From: Flavobacteriales bacterium
GTDB lineage: Bacteria; Bacteroidota; Bacteroidia; Flavobacteriales_F; PHOS-HE28
Assembly: GCA_016705545.1 (NCBI GenBank)
Contig: JADIYA010000006.1
Span: forward strand, 198,353 to 262,352
Length of the DNA: 64,000 bases
Reading direction: 5' to 3'
Part shown: positions 20,840 to 45,415 of the stretch, one piece after another
How the letters are laid out: every line of letters starts with the position of its first letter
How positions within the stretch are numbered: the stretch's first letter is position 1
Translations under genes and position numbers: made by a program
Notes under the pieces: model-generated
What the model was told of the DNA's origin: nothing
What the model saw: the letters and a program-made list of their open reading frames with translations, nothing else
Database searches by the model: none

Positions 20840-22227
20840 GCGGTGGGTGCGTGCTTCGAGCCCCGGAAGCCATACCATACCAGGAAAGCATAGCACAAGA
20901 GCGGCAACGCGAAGCTGATGTGGAAACCCATGGTGGTGTACTTCTGAACGCCCATGAAATCAATGATGGCCCCTTGCAACGGCGGGATGACCGCACCACC
21001 GACGATCATCATCACAAGAAGACTTGAGCCCTGCGCGGTGTCGTCTCCCAAACCATCGATGGCCAAGGTGAAGATGTTGCTCCACATGATCGAATTGAAG
21101 AGGCCGATGGCTACGATCGCCCACATGGCCCATGCACCATCGAAGAGGATCACGCCAACGAGCAGGCCTATGGCCGCGATTGCGAAGAGGCCTAGTGCGC
21201 GCGATGGGTTCGGTCCAGCGAGCACGAAGGCGATGAAGTTTGCGGCAATCAATGCGGCCATAGGCCACGCGTGCTTCAGCATGAAGCCCGAACCACCGTT
21301 CACCGTGACCAACAGAACGAACATGGCCGCACCAAGCAGCAGCATGCACAGGTAGCGCAAACCGCCCAAGCCCTTGTTCAATGCCACCGCACCCATGAAG
21401 CGGCCCGCCATTGCGCCGCCCCAGTACAAACTGAGATAATGCTTGGCGCTTCCTTCGGGCATGGCCATCACGCTATCGAGCTTGAGGAAGTTGATGAGCA
21501 AACTGCCGATGGCGACCTCGGCTCCCACGTAGCAGAAAATGGCCACCATACCCCAGCGCAGTTGCGGATGTCGCCAGGCGTTGCTTCGACCGCTGCTCAC
21601 ATGCGGTGGCTCCGGCAGTTCGGTGAAATGAACCCAAATGGCTTGCAGCAAGAGCAGCAGGGTGAAAGCCGCATACGGCCAACGCACCGCTTCATCGCCC
21701 TTGAAGACCGAGAAGATCAAGGCGCCCCCGATGATGGGCGCGAGGGTGGTGCCCAGTGAGTTGAATGCTTGGGCCATGTTCAATCGGCTGCTCGCACCGG
21801 CCGGGTCGCCGATGATGGCCACGAACGGATTGGCTGCGATCTGCAGCAAGGTGAACCCGAGGCCGAGCACGAACAAGGCGAGCAGGTAGAACGCGAACAT
21901 GTTCACGTAGGTGGCGGGAACGAAAAGGGCGGTGCCGAGCGCGGAAAGCAGGAGCCCTGCGATGAGCGCGCGCTTGTAACCGGCGTGCGCAATGGGGTCA
22001 ACACCGCCCTGCGATCGGATGTAGTAGACGAGCGAGCCAACGAAGTAGGCGCCGAAGAAGCAGAGATTCACCATCAGGGTCTGCCACCACGGCATGCCGG
22101 GGAAAACGGTGCGCAGGTGGGGGATGAGCACATCGTTCATCACCGTCATGAAGCCCCACATGAAGAAGAGCGTGGTGAGGACAACAAGCGGGTAGGTGGC
22201 GGAGCGCTGGTTCATGGTACTGGTCAA
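20836..22227 (-). CDS. MFS sugar transporter of the FucP / glucose-galactose (GluP) subfamily
   Basis: Twelve TM helices. The N-terminus LVVLTTLFFMWGFMTVMNDVLIPHL is characteristic of FucP/GluP. Confidence 0.7.
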   Translation of the reverse strand: MTSTMNQRSATYPLVVLTTLFFMWGFMTVMNDVLIPHLRTVFPGMPWWQTLMVNLCFFGAYFVGSLVYYIRSQGGVDPIAHAGYKRALIAGLLLSALGTALFVPATYVNMFAFYLLALFVLGLGFTLLQIAANPFVAIIGDPAGASSRLNMAQAFNSLGTTLAPIIGGALIFSVFKGDEAVRWPYAAFTLLLLLQAIWVHFTELPEPPHVSSGRSNAWRHPQLRWGMVAIFCYVGAEVAIGSLLINFLKLDSVMAMPEGSAKHYLSLYWGGAMAGRFMGAVALNKGLGGLRYLCMLLLGAAMFVLLVTVNGGSGFMLKHAWPMAALIAANFIAFVLAGPNPSRALGLFAIAAIGLLVGVILFDGAWAMWAIVAIGLFNSIMWSNIFTLAIDGLGDDTAQGSSLLVMMIVGGAVIPPLQGAIIDFMGVQKYTTMGFHISFALPLLCYAFLVWYGFRGSKHAPTA

Positions 22228-23739: not shown

Positions 23740-25689
23740 TTAAGCTGCCGTTGCCTGTCCCAGCTGCATCTCGATCCGCTCCTGGATCAGTCGGGCGAAG
23801 GCTACAACGGTCATGGCACCGGCATCGCCTGCGCCATGCTCACGCACGCTCAGGGTGCCGCTTTCCACCTCTTTCTCGCCGAGGATCAGCATGAATGGCG
23901 ACTTGGCAAGTTCGGCGTCTCGGATCTTGCGACCTATCTTCTCACTGCGCTCATCCAACTCGCACCGGATGCCCATGGCAGCCAATTGGGATTGCGCCTG
24001 CTTGGCGGCATCAACGAATTTGTCGCTGATGGGCAGGATGATGGCCTGCTCCGGGGTTAGCCAGAGCGGGAAGCGCCCGGCGGTGTGCTCGATGATGAGG
24101 GCGATGAAACGCTCCAATGAACCGAATGGCGCCCTGTGGATCATCACCGGGCGGTGGCGGGCGTTGTCGCTGCCCACGTATTCCAATTGGAATCGCTCCG
24201 GCAGGTTGTAGTCCACTTGGATGGTGCCCAACTGCCAGCGGCGTCCCAGTGCATCCTTCACCATGAAGTCGAGCTTGGGCCCGTAGAAGGCGGCCTCACC
24301 GTATTCAACCACGGTCTTCATGCCGCACTCGGCCGCCGCGTCGATGATGGCCTGTTCGGCTTTCTGCCAGTTCTCATCGCTGCCGATGTACTTGCTGCGG
24401 TCCAATTTGTCGCGCAGGCTCACTTGCGCCTCGAATTTCTCGAAGCCCAAGGCCCTGAGCACCAATAGGACAAGATCGATCACCTTCAGGAATTCCTCTT
24501 TCACCTGGTCCGGACGGCAGAAGAGGTGCGCATCGTCCTGCGTGAAGCCGCGCACACGGGCCAGGCCATGCAATTCACCGCTCTGCTCGTAGCGGTAAAC
24601 GGTGCCGAATTCAGCCAGCCGCAAAGGCAGGTCCTTGTAGCTGCGCGGCCGGCTGGCGAAGATTTCGCAGTGGTGCGGGCAATTCATGGGCTTCAGCATG
24701 AAGAGCTCGCCTTCCTGCGGCGTGCTGATGGGCTGGAAGCTGTCCTTGCCGTATTTCTCCCAGTGACCGCTGGTCTCGTACAGCGCCTTGCTGCCTATAT
24801 GGGGCGTGGCCACCTGCACGTAGCCGGCCTTCTCCTGGGCTTCCTTCATGAAGTTGATGAGCCGCTCGCGCAAGGCCGCGCCCTTAGGCAGCCACAGTGG
24901 AAGGCCCGCGCCAACGCGCTCACTGAAGGTGAAGAGGTCCATCTCCTTCCCCAGCTTGCGGTGGTCGCGCTTCTTGGCCTCTTCCAGGAGCGTGAGATGC
25001 TCGTCTAGTTCCTTCTGCTTCGGAAAGGTGATGCCGTACAGCCGCGTGAGCTGCTTGCGCTTCTCATCCCCGCGCCAATAGGCGCCTGCCACGCTCATCA
25101 CCTTCACGGCCTTGATGAAGGAGGTATCTGGGATGTGCGGCCCGCGGCACAAGTCGGTGAAGCTGCCTTGGGTATAGAAGGTGATCTCGCCATCGTTCAG
25201 GCCATCGATCAGCTCCAGTTTGTACTCATCGCCCTTCTCCGTGAAATAGGCCACCGCATCGGCTTTGCTCACCGCTTTGCGCTCGAATGCGCTCTTCTTC
25301 GAAGCGAGCTCTTTCATTTTGGCTTCAATGGCTGCGAAGTCACCATCGCCGATGGTCTTCTCGCCGAGGTCGATGTCGTAGTAGAAGCCGTTCTCGATGG
25401 GCGGGCCGATCCCGAATTTGGTTCCTGGGTAGAGTGCTTCGATTGCCTCGGCCAGCAGGTGCGCGCTGCTATGCCAGAAGGTGCTCTTGCCCTCCGCATC
25501 GTTCCAAGTGAGCAAGGAGAGGGTGCAGTCGCCGGGCAGCGGCCGGCTGGCGTCCCGCACTTCGCCGTTCACTTTTGCGCTCAGCACGTTCCGCGCGAGT
25601 CCATCACTGATGCTCTTGGCCACATCCATGGCCGTTGCGCCTTGCGCGAATTCCCGCACGCTGCCGTCCGGGAGGGTCACTTTGATCAT
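23740..25689 (-). CDS. thrS: Threonine--tRNA ligase
   Basis: [14 protein letters not shown]... (TGS domain) plus a class II aaRS core. Confidence 0.9.
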
Positions 25690-25814
25690 ATCGGTTCGCT
25701 TCACGTCCGTACAAATGGCCGCTGAAGGGCTGCGAAAGTAGGCCCATGGCAGTGAACCTTTGGACCATGCCGCGCCGAAGGCCCAAGCCTGCCAACGCCC
25801 ACGTCAGCCTGACC

Positions 25815-26234
25815 ATGAGCCGGATCAGGGCCAAGGACACCAAGCCGGAGCTCATCGTTCGTGCATGCCTTCGGGCTGCGGGCCTCACCGGATATCGCTT
25901 GCATTATGCCAAGGCGCCTGGCCGACCCGACATCGCTTTTGTGAATCGCAAGCTCGCGGTTTTCGTGCACGGCTGTTTCTGGCACGGCTGCCCGCATTGC
26001 CAGCCGCCCAAGCCCAAGCGCAATTCGTGGTACTGGGGGCCGAAGCTGGAGCGCAATCAAGAACGTGATGGCGAGAAGGCGGCGGCACTTCGACGTGAAG
26101 GTTGGCGCGTGATCACGCTGTGGGAATGCCGCATCAAGCGCACTCCCGATGCTCAAGTAGCGCGCGTCCTTAGGGCTTACGACGCCCGAACAGCCGTGCG
26201 AAGAAGCGCTTCTCGAAGGCCCAGAAAAAACTGA
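25815..26234 (+). CDS. vsr: Very-short-patch-repair endonuclease Vsr
   Basis: TKPELIVRACLRAAGLTGYRLHYAKAPGRPDIAFVNRKLAVFVHGCFWHGCPHC...WYWGPKLERNQERD...GWRVITLWEC, which is the Vsr signature. Start chosen at MSRIRAKD. Confidence 0.8.
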   Translation: MSRIRAKDTKPELIVRACLRAAGLTGYRLHYAKAPGRPDIAFVNRKLAVFVHGCFWHGCPHCQPPKPKRNSWYWGPKLERNQERDGEKAAALRREGWRVITLWECRIKRTPDAQVARVLRAYDARTAVRRSASRRPRKN

Positions 26235-26496
26235 ACTGCCCGAATAACGCGCCATATAGGAGCAGCAGGGCATTGTACACGGGCAGGATCAGGATGTAAT
26301 AGAGCACTGTGAACAGCAGGGGAGGGTCGCCTGCATCACCACTGGCCCAAGCCACCATCGGCTTCTTCAAGAACATCACGGTGAACCCGGTGAGGGCGAA
26401 GACCAGCAGGATGACCCCGACACGCGCAGGGGACACGCCCCAACGCTCCGCTAAGCGCCGCACCCAGCCAGCCTTCGACTCTTGTTGCTCTGCCAT
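26170..26496 (-). CDS. Small hypothetical membrane protein
   Basis: Two or three hydrophobic helices (VGVILLVFALTGFTVMFL, LLFTVLYYILILPVYNALLLLYGALF). Its 3' end overlaps the vsr 3' end by 65 nt in a convergent arrangement. Confidence 0.4.
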   Translation of the reverse strand: MAEQQESKAGWVRRLAERWGVSPARVGVILLVFALTGFTVMFLKKPMVAWASGDAGDPPLLFTVLYYILILPVYNALLLLYGALFGQFSFFWAFEKRFFARLFGRRKP

Positions 26497-26602
26497 CACG
26501 CGGCGAAGATGTGGCTGAGCCACCAAGCCTCAATCTGCCTGACCCAAAATGCCCCAATTGCGGTAGTCGGCCTCGCTCCTCCACTACTTCAATGCAGCCC
26601 GC

Positions 26603-27709
26603 TCAATCGGCCCACTCGGCCAGGAAGAGGTTCGTCTCCCGTGTGCCTCCATTGTTGCGGTTACTGCTGAACACCAGATAGCGGCCATCGGGACTGAACA
26701 CCGGGAATGCATCGAAGGTGTCGCCGTGGCTCACCTGCTCCAGGCCAGTGCCGTCGGCGTTGATCATGAAGAGCGTGAACGGGAATCCGCGTTTGCTGCG
26801 GTGGTTGCTGGCGAAAAGGATACGCTTACCGTCAGGATGCCAATAGGGCGCCCAGTTCGCCTGGCCCAGTGAGGTGATCTGCCGGGCATCGGTCCCGTCA
26901 GCGTTGGCCACCCAGAGCTCCATGTTGGTGGGCATCACGAGGCCCTCCTTCAGCAAGGCCAAGTATTCCGCTTCTTCATCCGCAGTGCGCATGCGCGATG
27001 CGCGCCAGAGCAGTTTGCTGCCATCAGGGCTGAAGAAGGCGCCGCCATCGTAGCCGAGGGTGCTCGTCACGCGTCGCACATCACTGCCATCGAGTTTCAT
27101 GGTGTAGAGATCCAGGTCGCCGTCGCGCATGCTGGTGAACACGATCCGGTCGCCTCTGGGCGAAACGGTCGCCTCCGCATCATATCCCGGTGTTTCCGTG
27201 AGCTTGCGGACCAGTTTCCCGCTCAATTCCGCCACATGGATGTCGAAGCTCGGATAAATGGGCCACACGTACTTTCCATCGGCCCGGCGCTCAGGCACGG
27301 CCGGGCAGGCGGCGTTGTGCTCGTGCGTGCTGGCGAAAATCACCTCCTTGCCGTTGGGCATGAAGTAGCTGCAGGTGGTGCGCCCGCCTTTTACGCTGAT
27401 GAGCGCGGGCTGCTTGGCGCGCAGATCATCGGTGAATGGATTGAACACATGGATCTGGTCGCAGCTCTCGCCCCAAGCCGGGTTGGTGCTCTGGAACACG
27501 AGCCGTTGGCCATCGAAGCTCCAATACGCTTCAGCGTTATCGCCACCGAAAGTGAGTTTCTTCAACCGCTTGAAGTGGCGCTCATCCGGATGGATCAAGG
27601 TGCTGTCCCAGCCAGTCACGGCCGCAGTGGGCGCAACGGGCGCCACGACGAACTTCGCTCTGGAGCATTGCACTAGTGCAGTGATGAGGGCGATAAGGGC
27701 GAGGCGCAT
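26603..27709 (-). CDS. TolB-like / PD40 beta-propeller periplasmic protein
   Basis: Signal peptide plus repeated DGxxIxFxS motifs (RIVFTSMRDGDLDLYTM, RILFASNHRS, YLVFSSNRNNG). Confidence 0.65.
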   Translation of the reverse strand: MRLALIALITALVQCSRAKFVVAPVAPTAAVTGWDSTLIHPDERHFKRLKKLTFGGDNAEAYWSFDGQRLVFQSTNPAWGESCDQIHVFNPFTDDLRAKQPALISVKGGRTTCSYFMPNGKEVIFASTHEHNAACPAVPERRADGKYVWPIYPSFDIHVAELSGKLVRKLTETPGYDAEATVSPRGDRIVFTSMRDGDLDLYTMKLDGSDVRRVTSTLGYDGGAFFSPDGSKLLWRASRMRTADEEAEYLALLKEGLVMPTNMELWVANADGTDARQITSLGQANWAPYWHPDGKRILFASNHRSKRGFPFTLFMINADGTGLEQVSHGDTFDAFPVFSPDGRYLVFSSNRNNGGTRETNLFLAEWAD

Positions 27710-27776
27710 GGCGGATCGTTCGGGCCGCGAATCTACCAGCCGCCTGATCAGCCGACGCTAGCGATAACTTGCCAGC

Positions 27777-28856
27777 ATGGACACTGCTGGGAAATCCGTC
27801 AAGGGGCGCGGGGCGGCTGATCAACCGGCCAATCGCTTCTTGAGCAGCAGCTACGGCATCGTGCATCCTGAGGGCATCGATGAACCGCTGGAAGACGCCC
27901 GTCCCACGCGTTATCTATTAGAGGAGCCCCGCACCATCGTGAACCGGGTGAACAGCCCCGACCTGCCTTTTGTGTACAGCTTGAATCCATACCAGGGCTG
28001 TGAGCATGGATGCGCCTATTGCTATGCGAGGCCCACGCACGAGTATTGGGGCTACAGCGCCGGCCTTGATTTCGAGCAGGTGATCCTAGTGAAGCGCAAT
28101 GCGCCGGATTTGCTGCGCATGCAATTGATGAATGCGCGTTGGGTAGTGCATCCCATCAGCATCAGCGGGGCCACGGATCCGTACCAACCGATTGAGCGCG
28201 CGGAACGGCTCACCCGCCAGTTGCTTGAGGTTGCGATGGAATTCAAGCAGCCGGTATCTCTGATCACCAAGAACGCGCTGGTGCTGCGCGATGCGGACCT
28301 GCTCGCAGAGTTGGCCGCGCAAGGACTGGCCTCCGTGGCCATCAGCATCACAACATTGAATGAGGGGCTACGGCGCGTCATGGAGCCGCGCACCAGCACA
28401 GCGGCCCATCGACTTCGGGCAATCGCCGAATTGCGAGCAGCTGGAGTGCCCGTGATGGCGATGCTGGCACCGATCATCCCAGCCTTGAATGAACCAGAGA
28501 TACCAGCCCTGATCAAAGCCGCTGCATCGGCAGGCGCGCTCACAGCCAGCTATACGGTACTGCGCACCAACGGCGCCGTGCAGAAGGTATTCGAATCTTG
28601 GCTGCGGTTGCATTTCCCCGATCGTGCGGATAAGGTACTTGCTCAGACCCGTGAGCTGCATAGCGGAAGCGTTTCAGATAGCGTTACCGGCCGCCGTATG
28701 CGCGGGGAGGGGGCGCATGCGACCAGCATCAATAGGGTGTTCAGCGTGCTGCGTTTGCGCCATTTCAGCGATTCGGGGATGCCAGCGTTGCGTTGCGACC
28801 TGTTCCAAAGGCCGCCCCAAGGCCAACTCGGCTTGTTCGATGTTCAGGGACCATAA
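27777..28856 (+). CDS. PA0069-family radical SAM protein (SplB-like)
   Basis: The N-terminus KGRGAADQPANRF and the CEHGCAYCYA cysteine triad (CxxxCxxC). Confidence 0.7.
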   Translation: MDTAGKSVKGRGAADQPANRFLSSSYGIVHPEGIDEPLEDARPTRYLLEEPRTIVNRVNSPDLPFVYSLNPYQGCEHGCAYCYARPTHEYWGYSAGLDFEQVILVKRNAPDLLRMQLMNARWVVHPISISGATDPYQPIERAERLTRQLLEVAMEFKQPVSLITKNALVLRDADLLAELAAQGLASVAISITTLNEGLRRVMEPRTSTAAHRLRAIAELRAAGVPVMAMLAPIIPALNEPEIPALIKAAASAGALTASYTVLRTNGAVQKVFESWLRLHFPDRADKVLAQTRELHSGSVSDSVTGRRMRGEGAHATSINRVFSVLRLRHFSDSGMPALRCDLFQRPPQGQLGLFDVQGP

Positions 28857-28916
28857 TTGCAGGCACGCCAACAACCCTCACCTTCGCGCAGCGTAAAGGC
28901 GCTGGATTCGATACCG

Positions 28917-31900
28917 ATGGCCTTCCGATTCTTCCGAGCTTTCATGCTCCTGGGCTTCGTGCACATGGGTGTGTTGCAGGCACAAACGCTCCCAGCTGGA
29001 TTCGTGTCGTCGTTGGTTTCCGATGGCTGGTTCAGCCCGGTAGGCGCCACTTGGGACGCGAATGGCCGGGTGTATGTCTGGGAGAAATCGGGCCGGGTTT
29101 GGATCATGGAGAATGGGGTGCGCCTGCCATCGCCGATGCTGAACCTGGTTGATGAGGTAGGCAACTGGGCCGATCACGGCATGCTTGGCTTCGCGCTCGA
29201 CCCGAACTTCACCTCCAATGGCCGCATCTACGCCATGTACGTCGTGGATAGGCACCACCTTATCCATTACGGTACGCCGAACTACAGCTCCTTAACGAAT
29301 GATTTCGGTACGGCCACAATCGGCCGGATCGTCCGCTACACGGCTATCGGTCCGAGCTTCAACACCGTGGATCCAGCGAGCCGTACGGTGCTGCTCGGAG
29401 AGACCATCACCACTGGTGCGCCCATCCTCTACAACACGCACGGTGTGGGAACATTGCTCTTCGCACCGGATGGCACCCTGCTCGCAACGATCGGGGAAGG
29501 CGCCAGTGCGGCTTCTGCCGACCTCGGTAGCGCATCGGAGAGCTACTTCGCCCAAGCGCTGAACGACGGCATCATCACCGCTGCAGAGAACGTTGGCGCA
29601 TTCCGCTCGCAGCTGATCAATTCGTTCAGCGGCAAGGTGCTGCGAATGGATCCCAATACCGGCGATGGCGTGCCGAGCAATCCCTTCTATGATCCGGCGC
29701 AGCCAAGAGCGCCTCGTTCGCGCGTTTGGGAACTTGGGCTGCGCAACCCATTCCGCATGACGCACAAGGAGGGCACTGGGAGCACCGATCCCACCACAGG
29801 CGATGTGGGAACGCTCTTCATCGGCGATGTGGGCTGGTACACCTGGGAAGAGATGAACGTTTGCACCCAGCCGGGCCAGAACTTCGGCTGGCCGCTCTTC
29901 GAGGGCTTCAGCCCGGCGCCCGGTTACCCGGACGTGAACATCGAGAACCGCGATGCCGAGAATCCGCTGTACAATGGCGTGAGCTGCACCCAGCGCTATT
30001 TCCGTTTCAAGGACGTGTTGAAGGAGGACACGCCTGTGCATGTGAACGGCCATCCAAATCCATACGACGCAGGACAGCAGGTGCCCAACTACATCCCCAA
30101 ATTCTTCCATAGTCGCCCCAGCATCGATTGGCGGCACGGCAACCAATCGCGGTGCGGAGCATTCAGTGGCGACACAGCCATCACGTTCGACCTCGACGAT
30201 CCGTTATCGCCCGTGCCGGGGCCGCGTTTCGGCGGTAACGCTCCTGTGGCAGGTCCATGGCGGGCATGGAGCGGTTTCCCGGCGCAATACCAGAACAGCG
30301 CCTTCCATGCGGACTATGCGCAAGGCTGGATCAGGCGCTTCGAGTACAATGCGCAAGGAGAAGTGCAGACCGTGCATGATTTCGCGAGCGGGTTGGGCAT
30401 GATCAGCTGGATGGGGCAGGGGCCCGATGGCTGCCTTTACTACCTGAAGTACGGAACCGGCGCTGAGCTGCGGCGCATCTGCAACACCACCACCGTGAAC
30501 CTGCCACCCGTAGCAATGGCCACACAGAGCGTGCAATTCGGTCCTGGGCCATTGAGCGTGAGCTTCACCGGCAGCGGGAGCAGTGATCCGGAGAATGGTG
30601 CACTCACCTACCTATGGAACTTCGGCGACGGCGGCAGCACGTCGAGCCTCCCGAATCCCACACGGATCTTCACGGCTCCGGCCGGGCAGCCGGCCATGTT
30701 CACCGTAACGCTGACGGTCACGGACAACTTTGGGCAGCAGGCCACGAAACAGCTGGTCGTGAGCGTGAATAACACTCCGCCTGTGGTCGCCATTACCAGC
30801 GTAAACAATGGCGCAACATCCTGGTGGGGATTGATACCATTTTCCAACTAGGCGCCTCCGTTTCCGACGCACAACATGGGCCTGCCCAACTCACCTATGC
30901 CTGGCAGGCCACCTTGGTGCATGGGAACCACGAGCATCAAGGGCCGATCTATTCATTCGTGAGCGGGAACATGACAACAAGTGGTGAAGGCTGCGACGGG
31001 CAGACCTACCATTACCGCATTGATCTCTCAGTGACCGATGCCCACGGCCTTACCGGAACAGCCAGCAATTTGCTCTTGCCACGGTGCCAAGCCGTGGCCC
31101 CGGTAGCGATCATCCAAGCATCTGCCTTGGCCGGCCTCGCGCCATTCGCTGTGCAATTCGATGGAACGGGCTCGTACGACCCCGGCACAATCGTGAGCTA
31201 TGAATGGGACTTTGGCGATGGCACGAGCAGTACGATGCCTGCACCACTGAAGACCTTCTTGAACGCCGGGGACCGGACCGTGACCTTGCGGGTGACGGAC
31301 AATGACGGCCTCTACGGCATTGCAACGCGCACCATCAGCGCATTGGCCTTGCAGCCGCCGCAATGCGCCGGGCTCTCAGGCGGCTTAACGCGCCAGGTTT
31401 GGAACAACATCGGCGGCACCAGCATCCCAGACCTCACCGGGCACCCAAGCTACCCGAACAGTCCTTCAAGCGCCGGTGTGATCACCAGCTTCCAAGGCCC
31501 TACCAACATCGCCAACAACTATGGCACGCGGATACGCGGCTACCTCGTGGCGCCCGAAACCGGCACCTACACCTTCACTGTGACCAGCGACGATGCCAGC
31601 GCCGTTTATCTCAGCCCGAATGCAGAGCAGATCCACAAGCAGCTCATCTGCTCCGTGCCGGGCACCACGCTTGCTGCCGAGTTCAATAAGTACGTTACCC
31701 AGACCAGCGTAGCGTTGCAGCTGGTGGCTGGTGCGCATTACTATGTGGAACTCCTGCACAAAGAGGGCTCCTCCAACGATCACTTCGCCGTTTACTGGCA
31801 GACCCCCTCGAACAGCAATCGCACGATCGTACCGGGAAGCGCGCTGGTGCAATGGGCAGATTGCCCACCGGGATTGCGTTTACGCGCCAACCTGCAAGGC

Positions 31901-32608
31901 CCGTTTGATGCATCCGTTAATCTCATGCACGACAATCTGCGCGCGGCAGGCCTTGTGCCGCTAGCCCAGCCCTATTCCGCCCTCGGTTACAGCTTCGTTG
32001 GCGGCGGAGGAACAGAAACAACCAGCGCTGCGAGGCTCTTGGAGACCGGCCCTAACGCCGTGGTGGATTGGGTCGTGGTTGAACTGCGCAACAAGAATAA
32101 TCCCGCGCAGGTGCTTGCTTCTAAGGCTGCATTGCTCGAACGTGATGGCGATGTTGCGGGAACCGATGGGTACGCTCGCCTCAACTTCGGTTTGCCTAAC
32201 GACGATTACTACGTGGCCCTCAGGCACCGCAACCACTTGGCCGTCATGTCCGCGGCACCGCAACGTCTCGATGCGAATGAGGCTGGGCTCGATTTCACGC
32301 TGGTCAGCACGCCTGCATACGGATTACAGGCGCAGGCCACGCTTTCCAATGCGCGCATGGCACTCTGGTGCGGCGACGTGAACCGGGACGGCACCTTGAA
32401 GTATGTGGGCTCGGGCAACGACCGGGACCCGATTCTTCAGGCAATCGGCGGAACGCTGCCCTCGGCCACCCTGGCGGGCTATCGTTTGGAGGATGTGAAC
32501 CTGAGCGGCGTGGTCAAATACATCGGTTCAGATAACGACCGCGACCCGATCCTGGTCAACATCGGAGGAAGCGTGCCCACGGGCACCCGAGCGCAGCAAT
32601 TGCCCTAG
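28917..32608 (+). CDS. Large secreted multidomain protein A: PQQ-type sugar-dehydrogenase-like beta-propeller, PKD domains, PA14 domain and a C-terminal duplicated NDRDPIL module. One apparent -1 frameshift at ~30818-30826.
   Basis: Signal peptide MAFRFFRAFMLLGFVHMGVLQAQ. Propeller (GSDH-like) motifs: GATWDANGRVYVWEKSGRVWIMENG, HGMLGFALDPNF, HGVGTLLFAPDGTLLATIGEGAS, GKVLRMDPNTGDG, WELGLRNPFRM. PKD-like segments: LTYLWNFGDG, YEWDFGDGTSS. PA14: GYLVAPETGTYTFTVTSDDASAVYLS. ORF 28857-30851 and ORF 30824-32608 are continuous with paralog B. Confidence 0.6.
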
Positions 32609-32678
32609 GGTACCTGGGATTGACTTTGGTCTATATGATGGCTAGTTTCGTCGCCATTATAAGCCTACTAGTCCTAAC

Positions 32679-35600
32679 ATGACCACGCTTTCTCCCGCCC
32701 GAACGCTCGTCGCCTTCGGCCTCTGGCTAATGGGGTATTCCCAGCCAATCGGTCTCTTCGGGCAGACCTACCAGCCGAACTTCAGCGATGCCTTGGTGAT
32801 GGGCGGATGGGTCTCACCGGTTGGCGCAACATGGGATACTAACGGGCGCCTCTACGTCTGGGAAAAGCGCGGCCAGGTATGGATCGTGGAGAATGGCGTG
32901 CGTCTTCCGAATCCACTGCTCAACATCAGCGATGAGGTAGGTGATTGGCGCGACCACGGATTCCTGGGATTCGCCTTGGATCCGAATTTCACGACCAATG
33001 GATACATCTATGGCATGTACGCTGTGGATCGGCACCATTTGATGAACCATGGCACGGGAAGCTACAACGCCAATACGAACGAATACTACGCGGCCACCAT
33101 CATGCGCATCACGCGATGGACGGCCATTGGGCCGAGCTTCAATGCGGTGAACTACGGAACACGGCAAGTGCTTGTGGGCGAGACGCGCTTCACCGGCGTG
33201 CCCTTGCTGCACGAATCGCACAGCACCGGCTCGCTCATGTTCGGCTCAGACGGGACCTTGTTGGCCACTGTTGGCGATGGCGCCAGCTACAACGTCGTGG
33301 ATGTGGGCAGCAGCAGCGACACCTATTGGTCGCAAGCACTGGTCGACGGGATCATTCGCCCGACAGAGAATGTGGGCGCCATGCGCTCGCAGATGCTGGG
33401 AAGCCATAACGGCAAACTGCTCCGCATCGATCCAGCAACAGGCGACGGCATTCCCAGCAACCCGTGGTACAATCCGGCAGCGCCCCGTTCACCGCAATCG
33501 CGCACGTTCGCGCTCGGCCTGCGCAATCCATACCGTGCCACCATCAAGCCCAACAGCGGCAGCACCAACCCGGCTGACGCCAATCCCGGCGTGATCTACA
33601 TCGGCGATGTGCAATGGGGCACCTGGGAGGATTTGAATGTGTGCTATGAGGGCGGCATGAACTTCGGCTGGCCGCTGTTCGAGGGCTTGACCCCGCACAG
33701 CGGATACATGAGCGCGCTCACCGCGAACCTCGATGTGCCGAATCCGCTCTACGATGGGGTGAGCTGCACGATCCAGTACCTGCGCTTCCAGGACCTCTTG
33801 AAGCAGGACACACCGATCCACCTCAACGGGCATCCGAACCCATGCAATCCCGCGGTGCAGATCCCCAACGCTATTCCGAAGCATTTCCACTCACGGCCCG
33901 TTGTCGATTGGCTGCACGGCAACCAAAGCCGATGCGGAGCTTCGATGGCAATACCGCAGTGACCTATGACCTGGGTGCATCCGGCTCACCGGTCTCCGGC
34001 CCGCAATTCGGCGGCAACTGCGCCGTGGGCGGACCTTGGATGGCCGGTCAGAACATGCCAGCAGGCTATCAGAACAGCACCTTCCACGGTGATTACGCGA
34101 GCGGCTGGATCCGCCGCTTCATGTTCAATGAGCAGAACCAGCCAGTTAGCGTGCATGATTTCGCAACAGGACTTGGTGCAGTGGTATGGATCGGTGCCGG
34201 TCCAGATGGCTGCGTTTGGTACATGAAGTACAACACCAATGAGCTGCGCCGGATCTGCTACACGCTGGCGGTGAACCTGCCTCCGGTTGCGGTGGCCACG
34301 CAGAGCGTGCAGTACGGACCAGGCCCGCTCACAGTGAATTTCAACGCGAGCGGCAGCTCCGACCCTGAGAACGGCGCGCTCACCTACTTCTGGAATTTCG
34401 GCAATGGCAGCCCCAACTCAACACTGCCCAATCCATCACGGACATTCACTGCGCCGCCTGGGGTGCCCACGACCTACACCGTGACGCTCACGGTCACGGA
34501 CAACATCGGGCAAACGGCCATTCAGCAGCTAATCGTTTCGGTGAACAACACTCCGCCGGCGGTCAACATCACCAGCATACCGTTGCCAGCGTTCTATCCT
34601 GTGGGCATCGATACGACTTTCCAACTGCAAGCCGCTGTGACCGATGCCGAGCACGGCCCGGCGCAACTCACCTATGCCTGGCGCACCACGCTTCACCATA
34701 ACACGCACACGCATCCTGAGCCATTCGATGACAACGTGAGCACGAGCACCGTGATCAGCGGTGTGGGCTGCGATGGCGAGACCTTTTTCTACGTGGTGAG
34801 CCTGACCGTCACCGATGCTGGCGGCCTCAGCACGACCGTGCAGCGCGAGATTCATCCACGGTGCTTCGCAATCGCTCCAACGGCCATCATCCTGGCAAGC
34901 ACCAGCAGTGGTGAATCGCCCCTCGCAGTGACCTTTGATGGCACGCAGAGTTACGATCCAGGGCAGATCGTCTCCTATGCGTGGGATTTCGGTGATGGCA
35001 CCAGCAGCACGAACGCGACGCCATCGAAGACCTTCACCGAAACCGGCGATCCCAAGTGACGCTCACCGTGACCGATGATGATGGCCTTACCGGCACTGCG
35101 GTGAAGGTGGTCAGCGTGCTCAGCTTCCTGCCACCGCAATGCCCCGGAGCCGCTGGCAGCCTCTTGCGGGAGTTCTGGAGCAATGTTTCCGGCAGCAGCG
35201 TGAGCGACCTGATCAACACGCCGAACTATCCGAATAGCCCGTCCGGAAGCTCCAGCCTGACCTCATTCCAAGGGCCAACCAACTTCGCGAACAACTATGG
35301 CACGCGCGTGCGCGGTTGGATCGTGGCGCCGCAAACCGGGAACTACACATTCACCCTCACCAGCGACGATGCCAGCGTGCTCTACCTGAGCCTGAATGCA
35401 GAGCCGCAGTTCGCGCAGATGATCTGCAATGTGCCCGGCTGGACCAACGAGACCGAATACACCAAGTACCCCAGCCAGGTCAGCACGACGATTCCGATGG
35501 TGGCAGGCCGCTACTACTATGTGGAACTGCTGCAGAAGGAGGGCAGCGGTGGCGACCATTTCGCTGTGCGCTGGCAAACGCCCAGCAACAGCACACGCGC

Positions 35601-36381
35601 CGTCGTTCCCGGCACAGCGTTGGTGCGCTGGCAGAATTGCCAGCCCAGTGTGCGCTTGCGTGTGAACCTGCAAGGTGCTTATGACAGCGCAACGGGGCTC
35701 ATGCGCGATGATCTGCGCGCGCTGAGCCTTGTGCCGCTGAACGAGCCCTATCAGTCGCTCGGCTTCCCGCAGGTCGGCGGGGGAGGGGAGACCACGACGA
35801 ATGCGCGGCTTTCGCAGTCCGGCAAGAACGCCGTTGTGGATTGGGTGCGCGTGGAATTGCGGAACAAGAACAACCCATCGCAAGTGCTGGCCGCGCGAAG
35901 CGCTCTGCTCGAGCGCGATGGCGATATCGTTGGCACAGATGGGTACGAGCGATTGATCTTCAATGTGGCGGCGGACAACTACTTCATAGCCGTGCGACAC
36001 AGGAATCACCTCGGCGTGATGAGCCAGTCAAGCATCGCCATGGGTGCCGCTGTGGCGGGTGCCGATTTCACCTTGGGCGCCGTGGCCACATGGGGAACCG
36101 AAGCGCGCGCCGCTTTCGACAACGGCAAGCACGGCCTCTGGTGCGGCAATGTGCAACGCGACCTCCGCCTCAGCTACATCGGTGAGCTCAACGATCGAGA
36201 CCCGATCCTCGCGCTCATCGGCGGGTCCAACCCGAACAGCACCACCATGGGCTACCACATGGCTGACGTGACCATGGATGGCATGGTGCGCTACATCGGG
36301 CTTGGAAACGACCGTGACCCGATCCTGGTGAACATCGGAGGAAGCGTGCCCACAAGCGTTCGCAACGAGCAGTTGCCTTAG
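32679..36381 (+). CDS. Large secreted multidomain protein B, a tandem paralog of A with the same domain order. Two apparent -1 frameshifts at ~33941 and ~35051.
   Basis: Three ORFs (32679-33962, 33842-35059, 35056-36381) align in order to paralog A. The frameshift at 33941 is a T-run contraction (gct tc gat, expected gct ttc gat giving RCGAFDGNTAVTYDL). The frameshift at 35051 is a C-run contraction (gat ccc aag tg, expected gat ccc caa gtg giving TGDPQVTLTVTDDDGL). Confidence 0.6.
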
Positions 36382-38623: not shown

Positions 38624-39757
38624 TCACTTCGGCGGCGCATAGCCGATCCGATAGATCATGTCCGCGCCATCGTCGCTCACGAGCAACGCACCATCGGGCG
38701 CTACGATCAAATCCACAGGCCGGCCCCATGCACGCGTGCCATCCAGCCAGCCTTCGGCGAAGACTTCGTGCGTGGCGCTGCCATCGGCTTGCGGGAAGGC
38801 CGCCACAACCCGGTAGCCGGCGGGCGTACTGCGGTTCCAGCTGCCATGCTCCGCAATGAAGATGGCCCCGCGGTATTTCTCCGGGAACAAAGTCCCCGTG
38901 TAGAAACGCATGCCCAACGGTGCGACATGCGGGCCGAGCTTCGCGGCAGGCGGGGTGAATTCGGAGCATGCGCGCTCCTTGCCGAATTCCGGGTCGCTTA
39001 CGTCGCCAGCGTGGCAGAAAGGATAGCCGAAGTGCCGCCCAGCGCGATCGATCCGGTTCAGCTCGCAATCGGGACTATCGTCGCCAAGCCAATCGCGGCC
39101 GTTGTCCGTGAACCAGAGCTCACCGGTGCGCGGATGCCAGTCGAAGCCCACAGTGTTGCGCACGCCATGCGCCACGATCTCCCGGTCGCCGCCATCCGGG
39201 TTGATGCGCGTGATCGAGGCGTACACGCTATCTGCCTTCAAGCAGATGTTGCACGGCGCGCCCACCGGCACATAGAGCTTGCCGTCCGGGCCGAAGGCGA
39301 TGAATTTCCAACCATGATGGGTATCCGTCGGAAAAGCCTGTGAGACCAGCACCGGCTCAGGAGGATCAGCAAGGTGTGATTCGATGTCATCCAATCGGAG
39401 GATGCGGTCAATCGCGCTGACATAGAGCGCGCCATCGCGGAATGCAACGCCAACAGGCATGTTCAACCCTGTGGCCACCGTGAATCGCTCATCGGCCTTG
39501 CCGTCCCTGTCGATATCACGGAGGGCATGCACCTCGCCCGCGCTTCGGCTGCCCACGAAAAGGGTTCCATCATCACCCCAGCACATCGCACGAGCGTTCT
39601 TCACTTCATCCGCGAACACCGTGATGCTGAAACCTGGCGGCAATTCGACCCCCTCGACCTGAGGCGCCCCACCACGGATGCTGGGCACGCAGACCGAAGC
39701 ATTCAGCACCAGGGCGACGCCGATGGCCAACGGCAAATTCCGGGGTTCAGTGCTCAT
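38624..39757 (-). CDS. PQQ-dependent soluble sugar (aldose/sorbosone) dehydrogenase, YliI-like
   Basis: GFSITVFADEVKNARAMCWGDDGTLFVG, GKLYVPVGAPCN, GVRNTVGFDWHPRTGELWFTDNGRD, FGYPFCHAG, PAAKLGPHVAPLGMRFY. Confidence 0.7.
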   Translation of the reverse strand: MSTEPRNLPLAIGVALVLNASVCVPSIRGGAPQVEGVELPPGFSITVFADEVKNARAMCWGDDGTLFVGSRSAGEVHALRDIDRDGKADERFTVATGLNMPVGVAFRDGALYVSAIDRILRLDDIESHLADPPEPVLVSQAFPTDTHHGWKFIAFGPDGKLYVPVGAPCNICLKADSVYASITRINPDGGDREIVAHGVRNTVGFDWHPRTGELWFTDNGRDWLGDDSPDCELNRIDRAGRHFGYPFCHAGDVSDPEFGKERACSEFTPPAAKLGPHVAPLGMRFYTGTLFPEKYRGAIFIAEHGSWNRSTPAGYRVVAAFPQADGSATHEVFAEGWLDGTRAWGRPVDLIVAPDGALLVSDDGADMIYRIGYAPPK

Positions 39758-39853
39758 GACGAGATGGGACTGCAACCGAGGCGGGCTCCATTGCGGCCCT
39801 GAAAGATAGAGGCATCGGGCCGCGGTTTACTTTCGGCGCGTCAACTCCGCACC

Positions 39854-41182
39854 ATGCGCCGAATCACCTTGCTCATGCTCATTGCGCATGCCGCCTTCGG
39901 GCTTGCACAAGATGCCTACCTCAATACCGCCTTCGTTCCTCGCTACTGGAAGGCCAATGACCCGTGGCCGCTGAGCGCCCGCGTGCGAAACGCGTCAAGC
40001 ACGGTTCCGCTGATCACCTTTCGGGTGGATTGGCGATTCAACAGTGGGCCGGTCCAAGTAGGCAATACGCAGAGCACCACGGGAATACTGCCCGGGCAGT
40101 ATTGGCCCTACACGCATCCTACCGCGTTCAATGTTCCGGCCAGCAGCGGCACCTTGAAGATGTGGGTAGTGGGGGTAGGAGATTCCAACCACAGCAACGA
40201 TACGCTCTACTTCACAGTGGACGTGCTGAGCGCATGGGCCACGAAGAGCGTGCTCATTGAACAATACACGGGTACCTGGTGCCAGTTCTGTCCCTTGCCC
40301 AATGCCGCCACCAATACGCTCAACGACGACCCGCTGATCGTGGTGGCCAAGCACCACAATGGAGATGAATTGAGCAGCGCAAGCAGCACGGCATACTGGC
40401 AGCAGTTCAATGCGAATTACTCGCCAGCCGGGGTGATGGAGCAGGAGGAGTTCGGCACCCTGGGCGACGATGCCGCTTACGATCAGTGGGGGCCGCGTGC
40501 CGAACAGCGCAAGCAGGGGGTATCGCCGGTGAGCATAGCGGTCGCTTCAGGCTTCAATGCATGGCAACGGTTGCTCACCGTCGATCTTGCTGTGACCTTC
40601 ACCGCGGCGCAAACAGGGACCTTCGTGGTGAATGCCTATATCCTCGAGGACAGCATCAACGGCGTGCAGGTGGCTGGAGGGAGCCCATACATGCATCAGC
40701 AAGTGGTGCGTGAAGTGCTCGGCGGCGCGAACGGTACGGCGGATGTGATCCCCGCCACCACCACCGCAGGGAGCACGTACAGCCATCAGTACACCTTCAC
40801 GGTGCCGGAGCAATGGAATGCCGCCAACCTGCGCGTGATCGCCATGGTCACTGAGAAGCGCAATGGCACGAGCTGGACCGTGAACGTGTCAGACGGCGAT
40901 CTAACGGAAGTTCACGTCCCGGAGTCCGCCACGGCTGAAGGCTTCTTCCGGCTATGGCCCAGCCCCGCACGCGACATGGCCTTCATTGATTTCGAGCCCA
41001 GCGTCGGATCTGCTCAGCTGCAATTGATCGGTGCCGATGGACGCGTGGTCCTGGAACAAACGATCCAATCATCAGCTGGTCGTGTGTCGTTGCCGATTCC
41101 CCCGGATTGTGCAACGGGCAGCTACCTCCTCCGCGCGATTGCCGGTGATCGGGTGGGCACACGCACCCTTGTCATCGAATGA
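39854..41182 (+). CDS. T9SS-sorted Omp28-related (thioredoxin-like) outer-membrane/surface protein
   Basis: Signal peptide MRRITLLMLIAHAAFGLAQ. YTGTWCQFCP thioredoxin-like motif. The C-terminus FFRLWPSPARDMAFIDFE...GSYLLRAIAGDRVGTRTLVIE matches the Por secretion tail. Confidence 0.6.
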   Translation: MRRITLLMLIAHAAFGLAQDAYLNTAFVPRYWKANDPWPLSARVRNASSTVPLITFRVDWRFNSGPVQVGNTQSTTGILPGQYWPYTHPTAFNVPASSGTLKMWVVGVGDSNHSNDTLYFTVDVLSAWATKSVLIEQYTGTWCQFCPLPNAATNTLNDDPLIVVAKHHNGDELSSASSTAYWQQFNANYSPAGVMEQEEFGTLGDDAAYDQWGPRAEQRKQGVSPVSIAVASGFNAWQRLLTVDLAVTFTAAQTGTFVVNAYILEDSINGVQVAGGSPYMHQQVVREVLGGANGTADVIPATTTAGSTYSHQYTFTVPEQWNAANLRVIAMVTEKRNGTSWTVNVSDGDLTEVHVPESATAEGFFRLWPSPARDMAFIDFEPSVGSAQLQLIGADGRVVLEQTIQSSAGRVSLPIPPDCATGSYLLRAIAGDRVGTRTLVIE

Positions 41183-42974: not shown

Positions 42975-43307
42975 CTATCGGTTCTTGCGGGTTGTTTTCT
43001 TCACGGCCAATGCGAGCTCTTCCCAGGTCTGGTCCAGTTCCGCTAGGAAGCCCTCGCCGGTTGGGGTGAGCTTGTAGTATTTGCGCGGTGGGCCGGATTT
43101 GCTTTCCTCCCAACGGTATGTGAGGAATCCGCCATCCTTGAGCCGCGATAGGAGAGGGTACAACGTGCCTTCTACGACGATCAGGCGCGCATCCTTAAGC
43201 TGTGCGATGATGTCAGATGGATAAAGCTCGCCCTGAGCTAGCACGCTCAGTATGCAGTATTCCAGCACGCCTCTGCGCATCTGCGCCTTGCTGTTCTCGA
43301 CCTTCAT
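42975..43307 (-). CDS. PadR family transcriptional regulator
   Basis: RGVLEYCILSVLAQGELYPSDIIAQLKDARLIVVEGTLYPLLSRLKDGGFLTYRWEES...RKYYKLTPTGE. Confidence 0.75.
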   Translation of the reverse strand: MKVENSKAQMRRGVLEYCILSVLAQGELYPSDIIAQLKDARLIVVEGTLYPLLSRLKDGGFLTYRWEESKSGPPRKYYKLTPTGEGFLAELDQTWEELALAVKKTTRKNR

Positions 43308-43456
43308 CTCTAGTGGCGTTAGTTCGTTGCGGGGCAAAGATGCGTGTTTCGCTTGGTACTATGCACAACAAGGTACCTTTCGTTATGAACGGCGGATGTT
43401 CATGTCCAGCGGCCAGGTGCGCACGGCTACCAGGCCACCATGCCGTCCTTTGCGCT

Positions 43457-45415
43457 ATGCAAAAAGCGGTGGCAGCGGTTCTCTTGATGCTTGCGCATGG
43501 GGTTCAAGGACAAACCCCGATTTGCACCATCCAAGGCACCGGTACGAGCAGCCCATTGGAAGGACAGTTGATCACGACGACCGGCATTGTCACAGCCATA
43601 TTCAGCGGCAGCGGCACAGTACAAGGCTTTTTCATTGAGGACCCCGCCTGTGATTCGAATCCAGCCTCGAGCAATGGCCTTTTCGTGTACAACCCGAACA
43701 CCGCAGGAATCAATTTGGGGCAGCGCGTGAGCGTGAGCGGCACGGTGACCGAGTTCCAAGGGCTCACGGAGATCTCCCAGGTCTCCAACATTTCCATTAT
43801 CGGTTCGGGCACGGTGTCGCCTACAGACATCAACCTGCCTATGGCCGCGATTACTGATTGGGAGCGCCACGAAGGCATGCTATTGCGCTTTCAGCAGGAA
43901 CTGGTGGTCATCGGCAATGACACTTGGGCGCAGTACGGCGAGCTTGTGCTGGCTCCCTCGCGCATGACCGCGCCCACTGACTATGCCGACCCAAACGACA
44001 ATCCCGCCTCAGGCACCAGCAGTACCGGCAGCAGCAACGTGGGGGCGATCGATGCGCTCATTGAACTGCAGGCGCGAAGCACCATCCTGCTCGACGATGG
44101 TCGCACGAGCACCTATCCGAGCCCACCACCAATGATTGGCGCGCAGGGTACACTCCGCTGCGGCAGCTCGGTTACGGGCCTCACGGGCGTGTTGCACTAC
44201 GCCTTCGACGAGTACCGTGTGCATCCGGTCGGCGTGATACCCCTGCAGCATGCTGTGCGGCCATCAGCACCGATAGTGGGCGGCGACATACTCATCGCAT
44301 CGTACAATGTGAAGAACTACTTCACCTCCCTGGGCAGTAACGGCGCGAGCACGGCCAACGAACTCCAGCGCCAGCGCACTAAGCTGGTTGCCGCCTTGCA
44401 AGCCATAGCAGCCGATGCATACGTGCTATGCGAACTGCAGAACAACGATGCCGCTTCGGATGACCTGCTCACTGCGTTCAACAGTGCCATGGGCGGCGAC
44501 TATAGCCTGATTGATCAGGATGAGCCCGGGGCGTTCACCCGCACGGTCTTCTTCCACAAGAATTCAACGCTAACGCCCATCACTCAGCTCTTCTCGCTGA
44601 ACACCTCCACGTTCGAGCGGGCCCATCTAACGCAGGGCTTCGTGGCCAATGCCAGCGGCAAGCGCTTTCTGCTCAGCGGCGTCCACTTGCGGAGCAAATT
44701 GTGCGACAATGCCTCTGGATCGAACCTCGACCAAGGTGACGGACAAGGCTGCTACAACGCCAGGCGGCGCTCACAGGTGGGCGAGTTGCTCAGCCACTGG
44801 GATGGGGTGCGGGCTTCTACCTGGGTGCCGGGGCAGCTTGTCGTGGGCGATTTCAATTCGTACGACCAAGAGGATCCCATTGATCGGTTGCGTTCCGGCG
44901 GGCTCATCGACCTGATCGCCGGCATTCCGCAGCCCTATTCCTTCGGCTACGCGAATCGCTTCGGGTCATTGGACCATGCCTTCGCCACGGCATCGATGGC
45001 TGACGCCATCACCGGCGCAGCTGTATGGCACATCAACAGCGACGAGCCGCCCAATCTCGACTACCGGGACTCGAACACGGCTTTCTATCAAGCCAATGCC
45101 TTCCGCAGCAGCGATCATGACCCGCTATTGATCGGTATCGATGCGCAACTGTTGCCGGTTGGGCTGGAGGAGATACCAAGGGCTGCCGCTGCAGTGCGTT
45201 TCCGATTCGACCCCATGAGCGGGTGGGCAGAATGGGAAGGGGAGGGGCTAGGGGAGGTGGAGTTGTTCGATGCCCTCGGCAGAACGCTGTGCGCTGCGAG
45301 CGCCGATGGGAGCGGAACTCTCAGGATGAACGCTACGGATGCTGAAAAAGGGCACCTGTTCTGGCGAGCGTGGTCGGAAGGCATGCCCTCCACCGGGCGT
45401 TTCACCTCCTGGTAA
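43457..45415 (+). CDS. ExeM/NucH-family extracellular nuclease (endonuclease/exonuclease/phosphatase fold), possibly T9SS-sorted
   Basis: An internal ATG at 43457 gives the signal peptide MQKAVAAVLLMLAHGVQGQ. ...IASYNVKNYF...VLCELQN...GDFNSY...SDHDPLLIGID are EEP-fold nuclease motifs. The C-terminal ~70 aa have a CTD-like character (ELFDALGRTL...GRFTSW). Confidence 0.6.
   Translation: MQKAVAAVLLMLAHGVQGQTPICTIQGTGTSSPLEGQLITTTGIVTAIFSGSGTVQGFFIEDPACDSNPASSNGLFVYNPNTAGINLGQRVSVSGTVTEFQGLTEISQVSNISIIGSGTVSPTDINLPMAAITDWERHEGMLLRFQQELVVIGNDTWAQYGELVLAPSRMTAPTDYADPNDNPASGTSSTGSSNVGAIDALIELQARSTILLDDGRTSTYPSPPPMIGAQGTLRCGSSVTGLTGVLHYAFDEYRVHPVGVIPLQHAVRPSAPIVGGDILIASYNVKNYFTSLGSNGASTANELQRQRTKLVAALQAIAADAYVLCELQNNDAASDDLLTAFNSAMGGDYSLIDQDEPGAFTRTVFFHKNSTLTPITQLFSLNTSTFERAHLTQGFVANASGKRFLLSGVHLRSKLCDNASGSNLDQGDGQGCYNARRRSQVGELLSHWDGVRASTWVPGQLVVGDFNSYDQEDPIDRLRSGGLIDLIAGIPQPYSFGYANRFGSLDHAFATASMADAITGAAVWHINSDEPPNLDYRDSNTAFYQANAFRSSDHDPLLIGIDAQLLPVGLEEIPRAAAAVRFRFDPMSGWAEWEGEGLGEVELFDALGRTLCAASADGSGTLRMNATDAEKGHLFWRAWSEGMPSTGRFTSW

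Follow-up and report, generated by a model that had tools for sequence, protein, structure and literature searches.

A tandem pair of long genes in an uncultured Flavobacteriales bacterium from activated sludge raises the questions whether these genes are functional, what their presumably secreted products do, and what kind of module terminates both proteins. The pair is located on the forward strand of a 64-kb stretch of contig JADIYA010000006.1 (assembly GCA_016705545.1, positions 198,353 to 262,352), which is referred to as the window; all coordinates are positions in it. We call the genes paralog A (28917-32608) and paralog B (32679-36381), and their respective orthologs A-type and B-type. 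The joint explanation that we favor, with a probability of about 0.6, is that A and B are functional, tandemly duplicated genes, that the frameshifts interrupting them are assembly errors, and that the approximately 245-aa C-terminal module (in the following CTD) is a clade-wide C-terminal tag.

An earlier sequence-only reading described two intact genes of shared domain order. Coordinates and strand of the pair were given correctly, and all motifs quoted are found in the translations, but the interval 28917-36381 (+) comprises five open reading frames (ORFs), not two, and three -1 frameshifts were overlooked. In case of A, the ORFs are located at 28857-30851 and 30824-32608 (+), and in case of B at 32679-33962, 33842-35059, and 35056-36381 (+). 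Restoration of one base in A and of two bases in B yields proteins of 1230 aa and 1234 aa, respectively. These share 60.7% amino acid identity over 1220 aa with 2 gaps, within the 55-65% estimated by eye, at a DNA identity of 66%, and their domain order is indeed identical. Due to the single-base deletions, the annotation of A is split in the public record: GenBank lists it as two coding sequences, MBK6342245.1 ("PQQ-dependent sugar dehydrogenase", 635 aa) and MBK6342246.1 ("PKD domain-containing protein", 594 aa). Judging from the ORFs, the same applies to gyrA and a P-type ATPase gene in the window, and the annotation of this metagenome-assembled genome (MAG) under-reports intact genes.

At all three junctions, the likeness to the sister copy resumes in the -1 frame upon three-frame translation. 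In each case one A present in relatives is missing on the forward strand of the window, at 30819-30822 in A (relatives CAT[A]CC) and at 33937-33941 (relatives GG[A]AGCTT) and 35051-35052 (relatives GATC[A]CC) in B. An independent metagenome contig, L001 (GCA_020051655.1), is 99.55% identical to window positions 24910-33435 with 37 substitutions. The sole indel in these 8.5 kb is the frameshift site of A, where L001 reads ACATACCCGG versus ACAT-CCTGG in the window, and L001 encodes an intact A of 1230 aa. Both genes are also intact and in the same order in L002 (approximately 82% amino acid identity to A) and in L085/L086 (approximately 90% DNA identity). Compared to the latter two, the A/B sites are the only uncompensated coding indels over approximately 20 kb, each of them a single-A deletion. 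Versus L085, at a dS of approximately 0.3, the ratio of nonsynonymous to synonymous substitution rates (dN/dS) amounts to 0.112 in A and 0.064 in B, with 0.043-0.202 for neighboring genes; within the two genes, constraint is strongest on the propeller of B (0.029).

A control for these frameshifts is given by gyrA (6548-9252, +), which is split by a -1 frameshift near position ~8230-8290, so that the ORF 6548-8452 corresponds to GyrA residues ~6-552 and the ORF 8080-9252, in the -1 frame, to residues 557-868. As gyrA is essential and hence not a pseudogene, its split is ascribed to an assembly error. Likewise, a heavy-metal P-type ATPase gene (49231-51485, +) is split by a -1 frameshift near 50031-50076, with the ATPase-cat_bd and HMA domains encoded in one ORF and the E1-E2 ATPase and hydrolase domains in the next frame. 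Since both genes are broken in the same way as A and B, the relatives carry intact copies, and dN/dS is low, the single-A deletions in A and B are almost certainly assembly errors. A context-dependent sequencing error at these sites, perhaps related to methylation motifs, is only a guess. Programmed frameshifting was set aside, since the sites are situated at unrelated places in A and B, the relatives are just one base longer, and no slippery heptamer is present.

The distribution of the frameshifts speaks against assembly errors. Three of at least five frameshifts in the 64-kb window are located in the 7.4 kb of A and B, i.e., within 12% of its length (under uniformly distributed errors, binomial p ~0.013), while 0 of 15 other genes syntenic with L002 are broken, and the sites are not long homopolymers. 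From the sequence alone, a very recent true inactivation may have occurred, which would leave no trace in dN/dS. That A and B are true pseudogenes or undergoing inactivation in this strain, with the frameshifts as real mutations, is nevertheless very unlikely in our view: the same kind of -1 shift affects the essential gyrA, the restriction to single-A deletions is the pattern of a systematic error, A is intact in the 99.55% identical contig, and dN/dS values of 0.11 and 0.06 indicate no relaxation. Another alternative, raised as a possible refutation in the sequence-only reading, is that the pair represents one gene doubled by misassembly. Apart from the mutual similarity of the copies nothing further points to it, and its probability is negligible. 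With just 66% identity at the DNA and 60.7% at the protein level, and with both copies separately intact in relatives, a misassembled or collapsed repeat is excluded; A and B are moreover both present, distinct, and flanked by the same genes in four other independent assemblies, and A-type and B-type sequences form separate ortholog groups.

The architecture of the pair had been regarded as unusual, whereas it turned out to be common in the clade. A search with the full-length proteins revealed 2206 homologs at E<=1e-20, of which the best 120 are all 1168-1307 aa in length and share the same set of Pfam domains. Named sources among these 120 are "Flavobacteriales bacterium" MAGs, and the proteins are called either "PQQ-dependent sugar dehydrogenase" or "PKD domain-containing protein". 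A and B are ordinary members of a large, uncharacterised, already catalogued family. Typing of 57 homologs resulted in 14 A-type and 43 B-type sequences. In the relatives for which both flanks were checked (e.g., L008 and L010), a lone B-type gene is situated at the A/B position, between the PD40/radical-SAM genes and the u386 gene, and the same apparently holds for several other relatives. Because the relatives checked on both flanks carry a single B-type gene there, we interpret A, from these sequence comparisons, as a lineage-restricted tandem duplicate of the widespread B-type form.

Both proteins possess signal-peptide-like N-termini, as had been stated, from which their secretion is plausible. 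In case of A the signal peptide, read from the translation, is MAFRFFRAFMLLGFVHMGVLQAQ (28917-28985, +), without a lipobox Cys. It is followed by a six-bladed propeller of the type found in soluble glucose dehydrogenase (sGDH) and Asd, which covers residues 22-524 of A (28980-30488, +; Pfam, structure model, and fold search) and residues ~29-529 of B (32763-34264, +; Pfam). The subsequent three Ig-like domains cover residues ~528-617 (PKD 1, by Pfam), ~620-725, and ~728-801 (PKD 3, by Pfam) of A (30498-31318, +), and residues ~533-622, ~625-730, and ~733-811 of B (34274-35109, +). Of the three PKD modules previously proposed, two stretches per protein score 108-121 bits for PKD_4 (PF18911/PF00801 test), but the middle domain (residues ~620-725 of A) is a divergent Ig-like domain below the Pfam PKD thresholds. 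A PA14/GLEYA domain follows at residues ~827-975 of A (31394-31840, +) and ~827-976 of B (35155-35604, +). The proposed PA14 domain was recovered with 40.0 bits in A and 39.4 bits in B (PF07691, cut-off 24), and both paralogs also reach the GLEYA threshold (33 bits, cut-off 26.2). Glycan-binding domains of this kind occur in bacterial glycosidases, toxins, and yeast adhesins; the pairing with a GSDH propeller is uncharacterised.

The assignment of the propeller to the GSDH family holds as well, and the absence of GSDH and PA14 homology, by which the sequence-only reading would have failed, was not observed. GSDH (PF07995) matches with 73.8 bits in A and 65.1 bits in B (cut-off 25), covering profile positions 4-223 and 4-245 of 332, respectively. 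The fold is supported by a confident model (predicted local distance difference test score, pLDDT, 92.4; predicted template modelling score, pTM, 0.92), which resembles sGDH in a Foldseek search (E 2e-20) with target-normalised template modelling (TM) scores of 0.77-0.82 versus 3A9G, 2ISM, 3DAS, and 2G8S. The six-bladed fold, the catalytic His, an Arg-Asn dyad, and the NYGWP motif are shared with Acinetobacter calcoaceticus sGDH, E. coli Asd/YliI, and the Asd enzymes from P. aerophilum, T. thermophilus, and S. coelicolor. In contrast to the compact Asd-type enzymes (333-348 aa), the A/B propeller is approximately 150 residues longer and only 16-19% identical, and unlike sGDH and Asd it is fused to PKD domains, PA14, and a 245-aa CTD.

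In sGDH, His144 acts as general base, Arg228 and Asn229 are located at the quinone carbonyls of pyrroloquinoline quinone (PQQ), the carbonyls of Gly247 and Pro248 bind the catalytic Ca2+, and Lys377 together with C-terminal arginines, of which Arg408 is named, hold the PQQ carboxylates (PMC6881810, PMC6881789). In AA12 enzymes, PQQ is bound with a different arginine set (PMC6881789). Profile alignments place the invariant His of the A/B family (THGVG/SHSTG) on the catalytic His in HSGG/HNGG, GLRNP on G[HI]RNPQG with the Arg-Asn dyad kept, and NFGWP on NYGWP of the sGDH-type enzymes. The His, the Arg-Asn dyad, the spacing of a D-V-G-W loop, matched to the Ca-binding loop by eye, and NFGWP are invariant over 44 sequences. 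Both C-terminal PQQ-carboxylate arginines (Arg406/Arg408 of sGDH), however, are replaced family-wide, with A/M-I-T/S-W in their place. In low-scoring local alignments, the gap-free family segment G-a-I-t-W-l before GPDG (M-I-S-W-M in A, A-V-V-W-I in B) is opposed to R-L-R-E-V in 2ISM, R-I-R-E-V in 7CDY, and I-R-D-V in 2G8S; the segment of A without the arginine pair is, according to the profile alignment, GMISWMGQGPDG. The earlier question whether PQQ ligands and catalytic His are retained is therefore answered in the affirmative for the His and the dyad and in the negative for the C-terminal arginine pair, and judging from these alignments the PQQ site is only partly canonical. Due to the loss of the carboxylate-binding arginines PQQ activity is uncertain, and PQQ-dependent catalysis, perhaps via other arginines as in AA12 enzymes, is possible but unproven.

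The propeller might alternatively be a non-catalytic ligand binder, similar to HHIP or a lectin, which together with PA14 would make A and B adhesins or receptors rather than oxidoreductases; we give this alternative not quite even odds. The Hedgehog-interacting protein (HHIP) of vertebrates contains EGF domains, and its ligands are Hedgehog and heparan sulphate. This extracellular, non-enzymatic protein has the same fold and is the nearest solved sequence to the propeller (E 5e-6 in a single-sequence search and 1e-11 in a profile search), although the profile match is confined to the N-terminal third (blades 1-2) and does not imply a functional link. HHIP also keeps the His, which alone is consequently weak evidence for catalysis. 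Besides HHIP and the replaced arginines, oxidation by PQQ is disfavored by a score of 39.7 bits for TIGR03606, the NCBIfam subfamily of glucose/sorbosone PQQ-dependent dehydrogenases, far under its cut-off of 434.55, and by the lack of a PQQ biosynthesis gene within the window, where the adjacent radical-SAM gene is of the PA0069 type. On the other hand, the joint invariance of general-base His, dyad, loop spacing, and NFGWP in 44 sequences argues against a non-catalytic propeller, as does the very strong constraint on the B propeller. Other arginines, e.g., those of the invariant GWIRRF, could substitute for the lost pair, and many bacteria scavenge PQQ.

The most informative part of both proteins is the CTD, which comprises 248 aa in A (31862-32605, +) and 247 aa in B (35638-36378, +) and ends at the stop codon with R-A-Q-Q-L-P and R-N-E-Q-L-P, respectively. 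Its core is a beta-sandwich with an invariant DW and HRNH, followed by two loop-strand-helix repeats of approximately 39 aa with the pattern D-V-x-x-[DN]-G...K-Y-x-G-x-x-N-D-R-D-P-I-L-x-x-I-G-G. The terminal segment represents a clean internal duplication with an invariant NDRD; the first repeat loop of B is degenerate (NVQRDL). In agreement with the sequence-only reading, which could not place the module in a named family, the last ~248 aa of A and B match no model in Pfam (2025 copy) or NCBIfam (June 2026), the libraries used throughout, even at E<=10.

That reading had treated the module as peculiar to the pair, whereas it occurs clade-wide on thousands of unrelated secreted proteins. In a word-indexed search, the CTD alone retrieved 1193 proteins at 49-63% identity, mostly "hypothetical" or "hemagglutinin" proteins of 226-434 aa and some with other N-terminal domains. 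An exhaustive hidden Markov model (HMM) search of 1.84 billion representatives revealed 13,313 clusters, 10,415 of them at E<=1e-10. In approximately 145 of the 150 best matches the alignment reaches the last residue, at host lengths of 255-3228 aa. Species-representative genomes contain at least 578 copies; the best 80 all belong to uncultured Flavobacteriales or Bacteroidota MAGs, and 3-5 copies per genome occur within these 80 alone. In 78 of these 80 genomic copies, R-x-x-Q-[LIVM]-P forms the terminus of the CTD and is directly followed by the stop codon. Passengers in 64 hosts that are not of the A- or B-type include lysyl oxidase, MAM, PKD, P_proprotein, LVIVD, and PAD_porph (Porphyromonas-type PAD) domains, furthermore M12 and M36 peptidases, esterases, phosphatases, fn3, and Laminin-G, and at least 51 of 63 complete hosts carry Sec-type signal peptides according to a strict heuristic. 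As an observation on gene order, CTD genes often adjoin one another, with 159 CTD-family ORFs in 80 loci (L005-L084). Many small hosts contain a conserved "GFQQP" mini-domain or GGNGRGD repeats before the module.

Published work turned up only type IX secretion system (T9SS) signals of types A, B, and C and classical dockerins, which is no proof that the module is undescribed; as far as Pfam, NCBIfam, and the literature show, the CTD is an undescribed family of C-terminal domains. As it holds a fixed terminal position, is 50-60% conserved on unrelated cargo, occurs several times per genome, and accompanies secretome-type passengers, it probably serves sorting or surface anchoring and differs from the CTDs of T9SS types A, B, and C.

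The structure model of the CTD (pLDDT 86.6, pTM 0.86) displays the beta-sandwich followed by the two loop-strand-helix repeats. Its seven best matches in the PDB are type II X-module-dockerin (XDoc) didomains of clostridial cellulosome scaffoldins (2B59, 4U3S, 5K39, 5G5D, 3KCP, 4WI0, and 4FL4), with probabilities of 0.92-0.99 and E-values of 3.5e-3 to 2.8e-2; transthyretin-like sandwiches follow. XDoc is a C-terminal didomain composed of an Ig-like beta-sandwich and a duplicated loop-helix with D-x-N-x-D-G-like loops, an arrangement that the CTD may share, and it attaches its protein to the cell surface. The model suggests a dockerin-like fold and a possibly Ca2+-dependent protein-protein or protein-envelope interaction. 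The dockerin/EF-hand impression of the sequence-only reading survives as this weak likeness at the level of the fold, but not as sequence homology. XDoc is clostridial, whereas the CTD belongs to a Gram-negative member of the Bacteroidota and carries a K-Y-x-G-x-x-N insertion and the invariant NDRD in each repeat. HHalign comparisons with approximate type I dockerin probes gave 27.7% and 5.9%.

With T9SS CTDs the module shares the obligate C-terminal position, Sec-exported hosts, similar passengers, many copies per genome, restriction to Bacteroidota, and a folded beta-sandwich. The organism uses this system alongside the CTD, as indicated by the canonical type A sorting domain (residues 368-441; TIGR04183, 23.4 bits, cut-off 23) of an Omp28-like protein encoded at 39854-41182 (+). 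Differences are given by the length of ~245 aa versus ~70-100 aa, the duplicated segment, the fixed R-x-x-Q-[LIVM]-P terminus, and the lack of a model match.

Taking these comparisons together, it is tempting to speculate that the CTD represents a novel sorting or display system of this uncultured Flavobacteriales clade, either as a fourth T9SS class or as a Gram-negative counterpart of cohesin-dockerin with a dedicated receptor, which would tag a large share of the secretome (13,313 clusters). We put this forward tentatively, as odds clearly below even seem appropriate. Several observations count against the explanation that we favor. The likeness to XDoc is marginal, as no match reaches an E-value of 1e-3 and the query-normalised TM scores are 0.31-0.41. 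No dockerin (PF00404) match was obtained with Pfam at E<=10, and no chain of the PDB was matched by the profile of the duplicated segment at E<=10. The same threshold yielded no Pfam or NCBIfam match for the T9SS signals of type A (TIGR04183/PF18962), type B (TIGR04131/PF13585), and type C (ChiA-like, cl41395), models that the libraries should include, type C not having been checked separately. Clustering of all ORFs of the 80 loci furnished no recurrent partner gene beside CTD genes, but only more CTD genes and local synteny. A cohesin-like partner is likewise not encoded next to CTD genes in these 80 loci, whole genomes not having been searched.

If a further, fourth type of T9SS signal were represented by the CTD, the T9SS would read it for outer-membrane translocation, and anchoring would not be its chief role. 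The position on Sec-exported proteins and the presence of a T9SS in the genome are in accordance with this possibility, and the passenger repertoire matches the known cargo classes of the T9SS, whose signals are already heterogeneous with types A, B, and C, type B requiring more than 200 residues (PMC10202324). We consider it rather unlikely all the same, since no type A, B, or C model matches, HHalign with the type A CTD of the Omp28-like protein in the window results in 1%, no solved T9SS CTD is found among the 50 best fold matches listed, the module by far exceeds type A or C signals in length, and CTD genes lack the adjacent PorP/SprF-like gene that type B cargo has. Less probable still is a carbohydrate- or matrix-binding module that is directed to an environmental polymer and takes no part in sorting or self-anchoring. 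Its beta-sandwich core is of the transthyretin/carboxypeptidase-regulatory type, which is frequent in binding modules, the loops of the CTD are putative Ca-binding sites, and some database entries are labeled "hemagglutinin protein"; this label, however, stems from automatic annotation, for which no supporting experiment was found. Binding modules are, moreover, not limited to the last residue and keep no invariant terminal R-x-x-Q-[LIVM]-P, and a shared module at 50-60% identity is hard to explain in this way for proteases, lysyl oxidases, PAD, phosphatases, and esterases.

For the reading that we prefer, in which the CTD sorts or anchors its hosts, the following course of events may be envisaged. 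A and B would be exported by Sec to the periplasm, as suggested by their signal-peptide-like N-termini. The CTD would then, via a common partner, direct translocation across the outer membrane or retention at the cell surface, where PA14 could hold a glycan and a sugar moiety could be ligand or substrate of the propeller. A and B are accordingly pictured most likely as surface-displayed proteins with PA14 on a glycan and a sugar-oxidising or sugar-binding propeller.

The value of the finding lies in the CTD, a family without a model that forms the very end of secreted proteases, oxidases, esterases, phosphatases, and adhesins in at least 13,000 clusters, and whose hosts are, going by record titles, Flavobacteriales common in activated sludge. 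Should it indeed be a sorting or anchoring tag, the C-terminal sorting signals known from Bacteroidota would gain a new class, sequence data would permit prediction of the proteome that these uncultured organisms export, and the CTD would be a candidate display tag.

A GH92 gene (16999-20214) and a stand-alone GSDH-like gene (38624-39775, -) are present near the pair, as had been pointed out. The latter encodes a DUF7133/GSDH propeller that resembles PVC-type heme-binding proteins in their N-terminal domain (TIGR02604, below cut-off), and 9 of 13 A/B-type loci have this gene conserved at 2-3 kb downstream. A functional locus of GH92, stand-alone GSDH, and A/B was rejected, as the arrangement is merely conserved synteny among close relatives. 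The region is interleaved with housekeeping genes (ThrRS, IF3, L20, and L35) and is not a polysaccharide utilisation locus. The radical-SAM gene directly preceding the pair was tried as PqqE and rejected as well, since it encodes a PA0069-family protein (444 bits); just 4 of 13 A/B-type loci have it upstream, and there is no conserved linkage to the pair.

Several further features of the window were recorded. A Vsr very-short-patch repair endonuclease is encoded at 25752-26231 (+) and implies a Dcm-like 5-methylcytosine system in the genome. An ExeM/NucH-family extracellular endonuclease gene is located at 43217-45415 (+; NF033681, 420 bits). A nitrous-oxide reductase cluster (54719-61603, +) comprises a nosZ-like gene (nos_propeller, 54719-56803) and genes for NosL (57184-57906), NosD (58073-59287), an ABC ATPase (59271-60014), and an ABC-2 permease (60057-60857), followed by a gene for a fasciclin-domain protein (60866-61603). 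A dense array of small genes at 10505-16167 (-) contains six with an AHSA1/SRPBCC domain, one of which is fused to an Arr rifampin ADP-ribosyltransferase domain (14791-15675), interleaved with a DoxX-like gene, two DUF1801 genes, a GyrI-like gene, and a YdeI/OmdA gene. Finally, the gene of a transporter of the major facilitator superfamily (20851-22215, -), situated between ROK and L20, looks like a gene replacement, because its product shares 35% identity with the syntenic copy of L002 compared to 92-97% for its neighbors.

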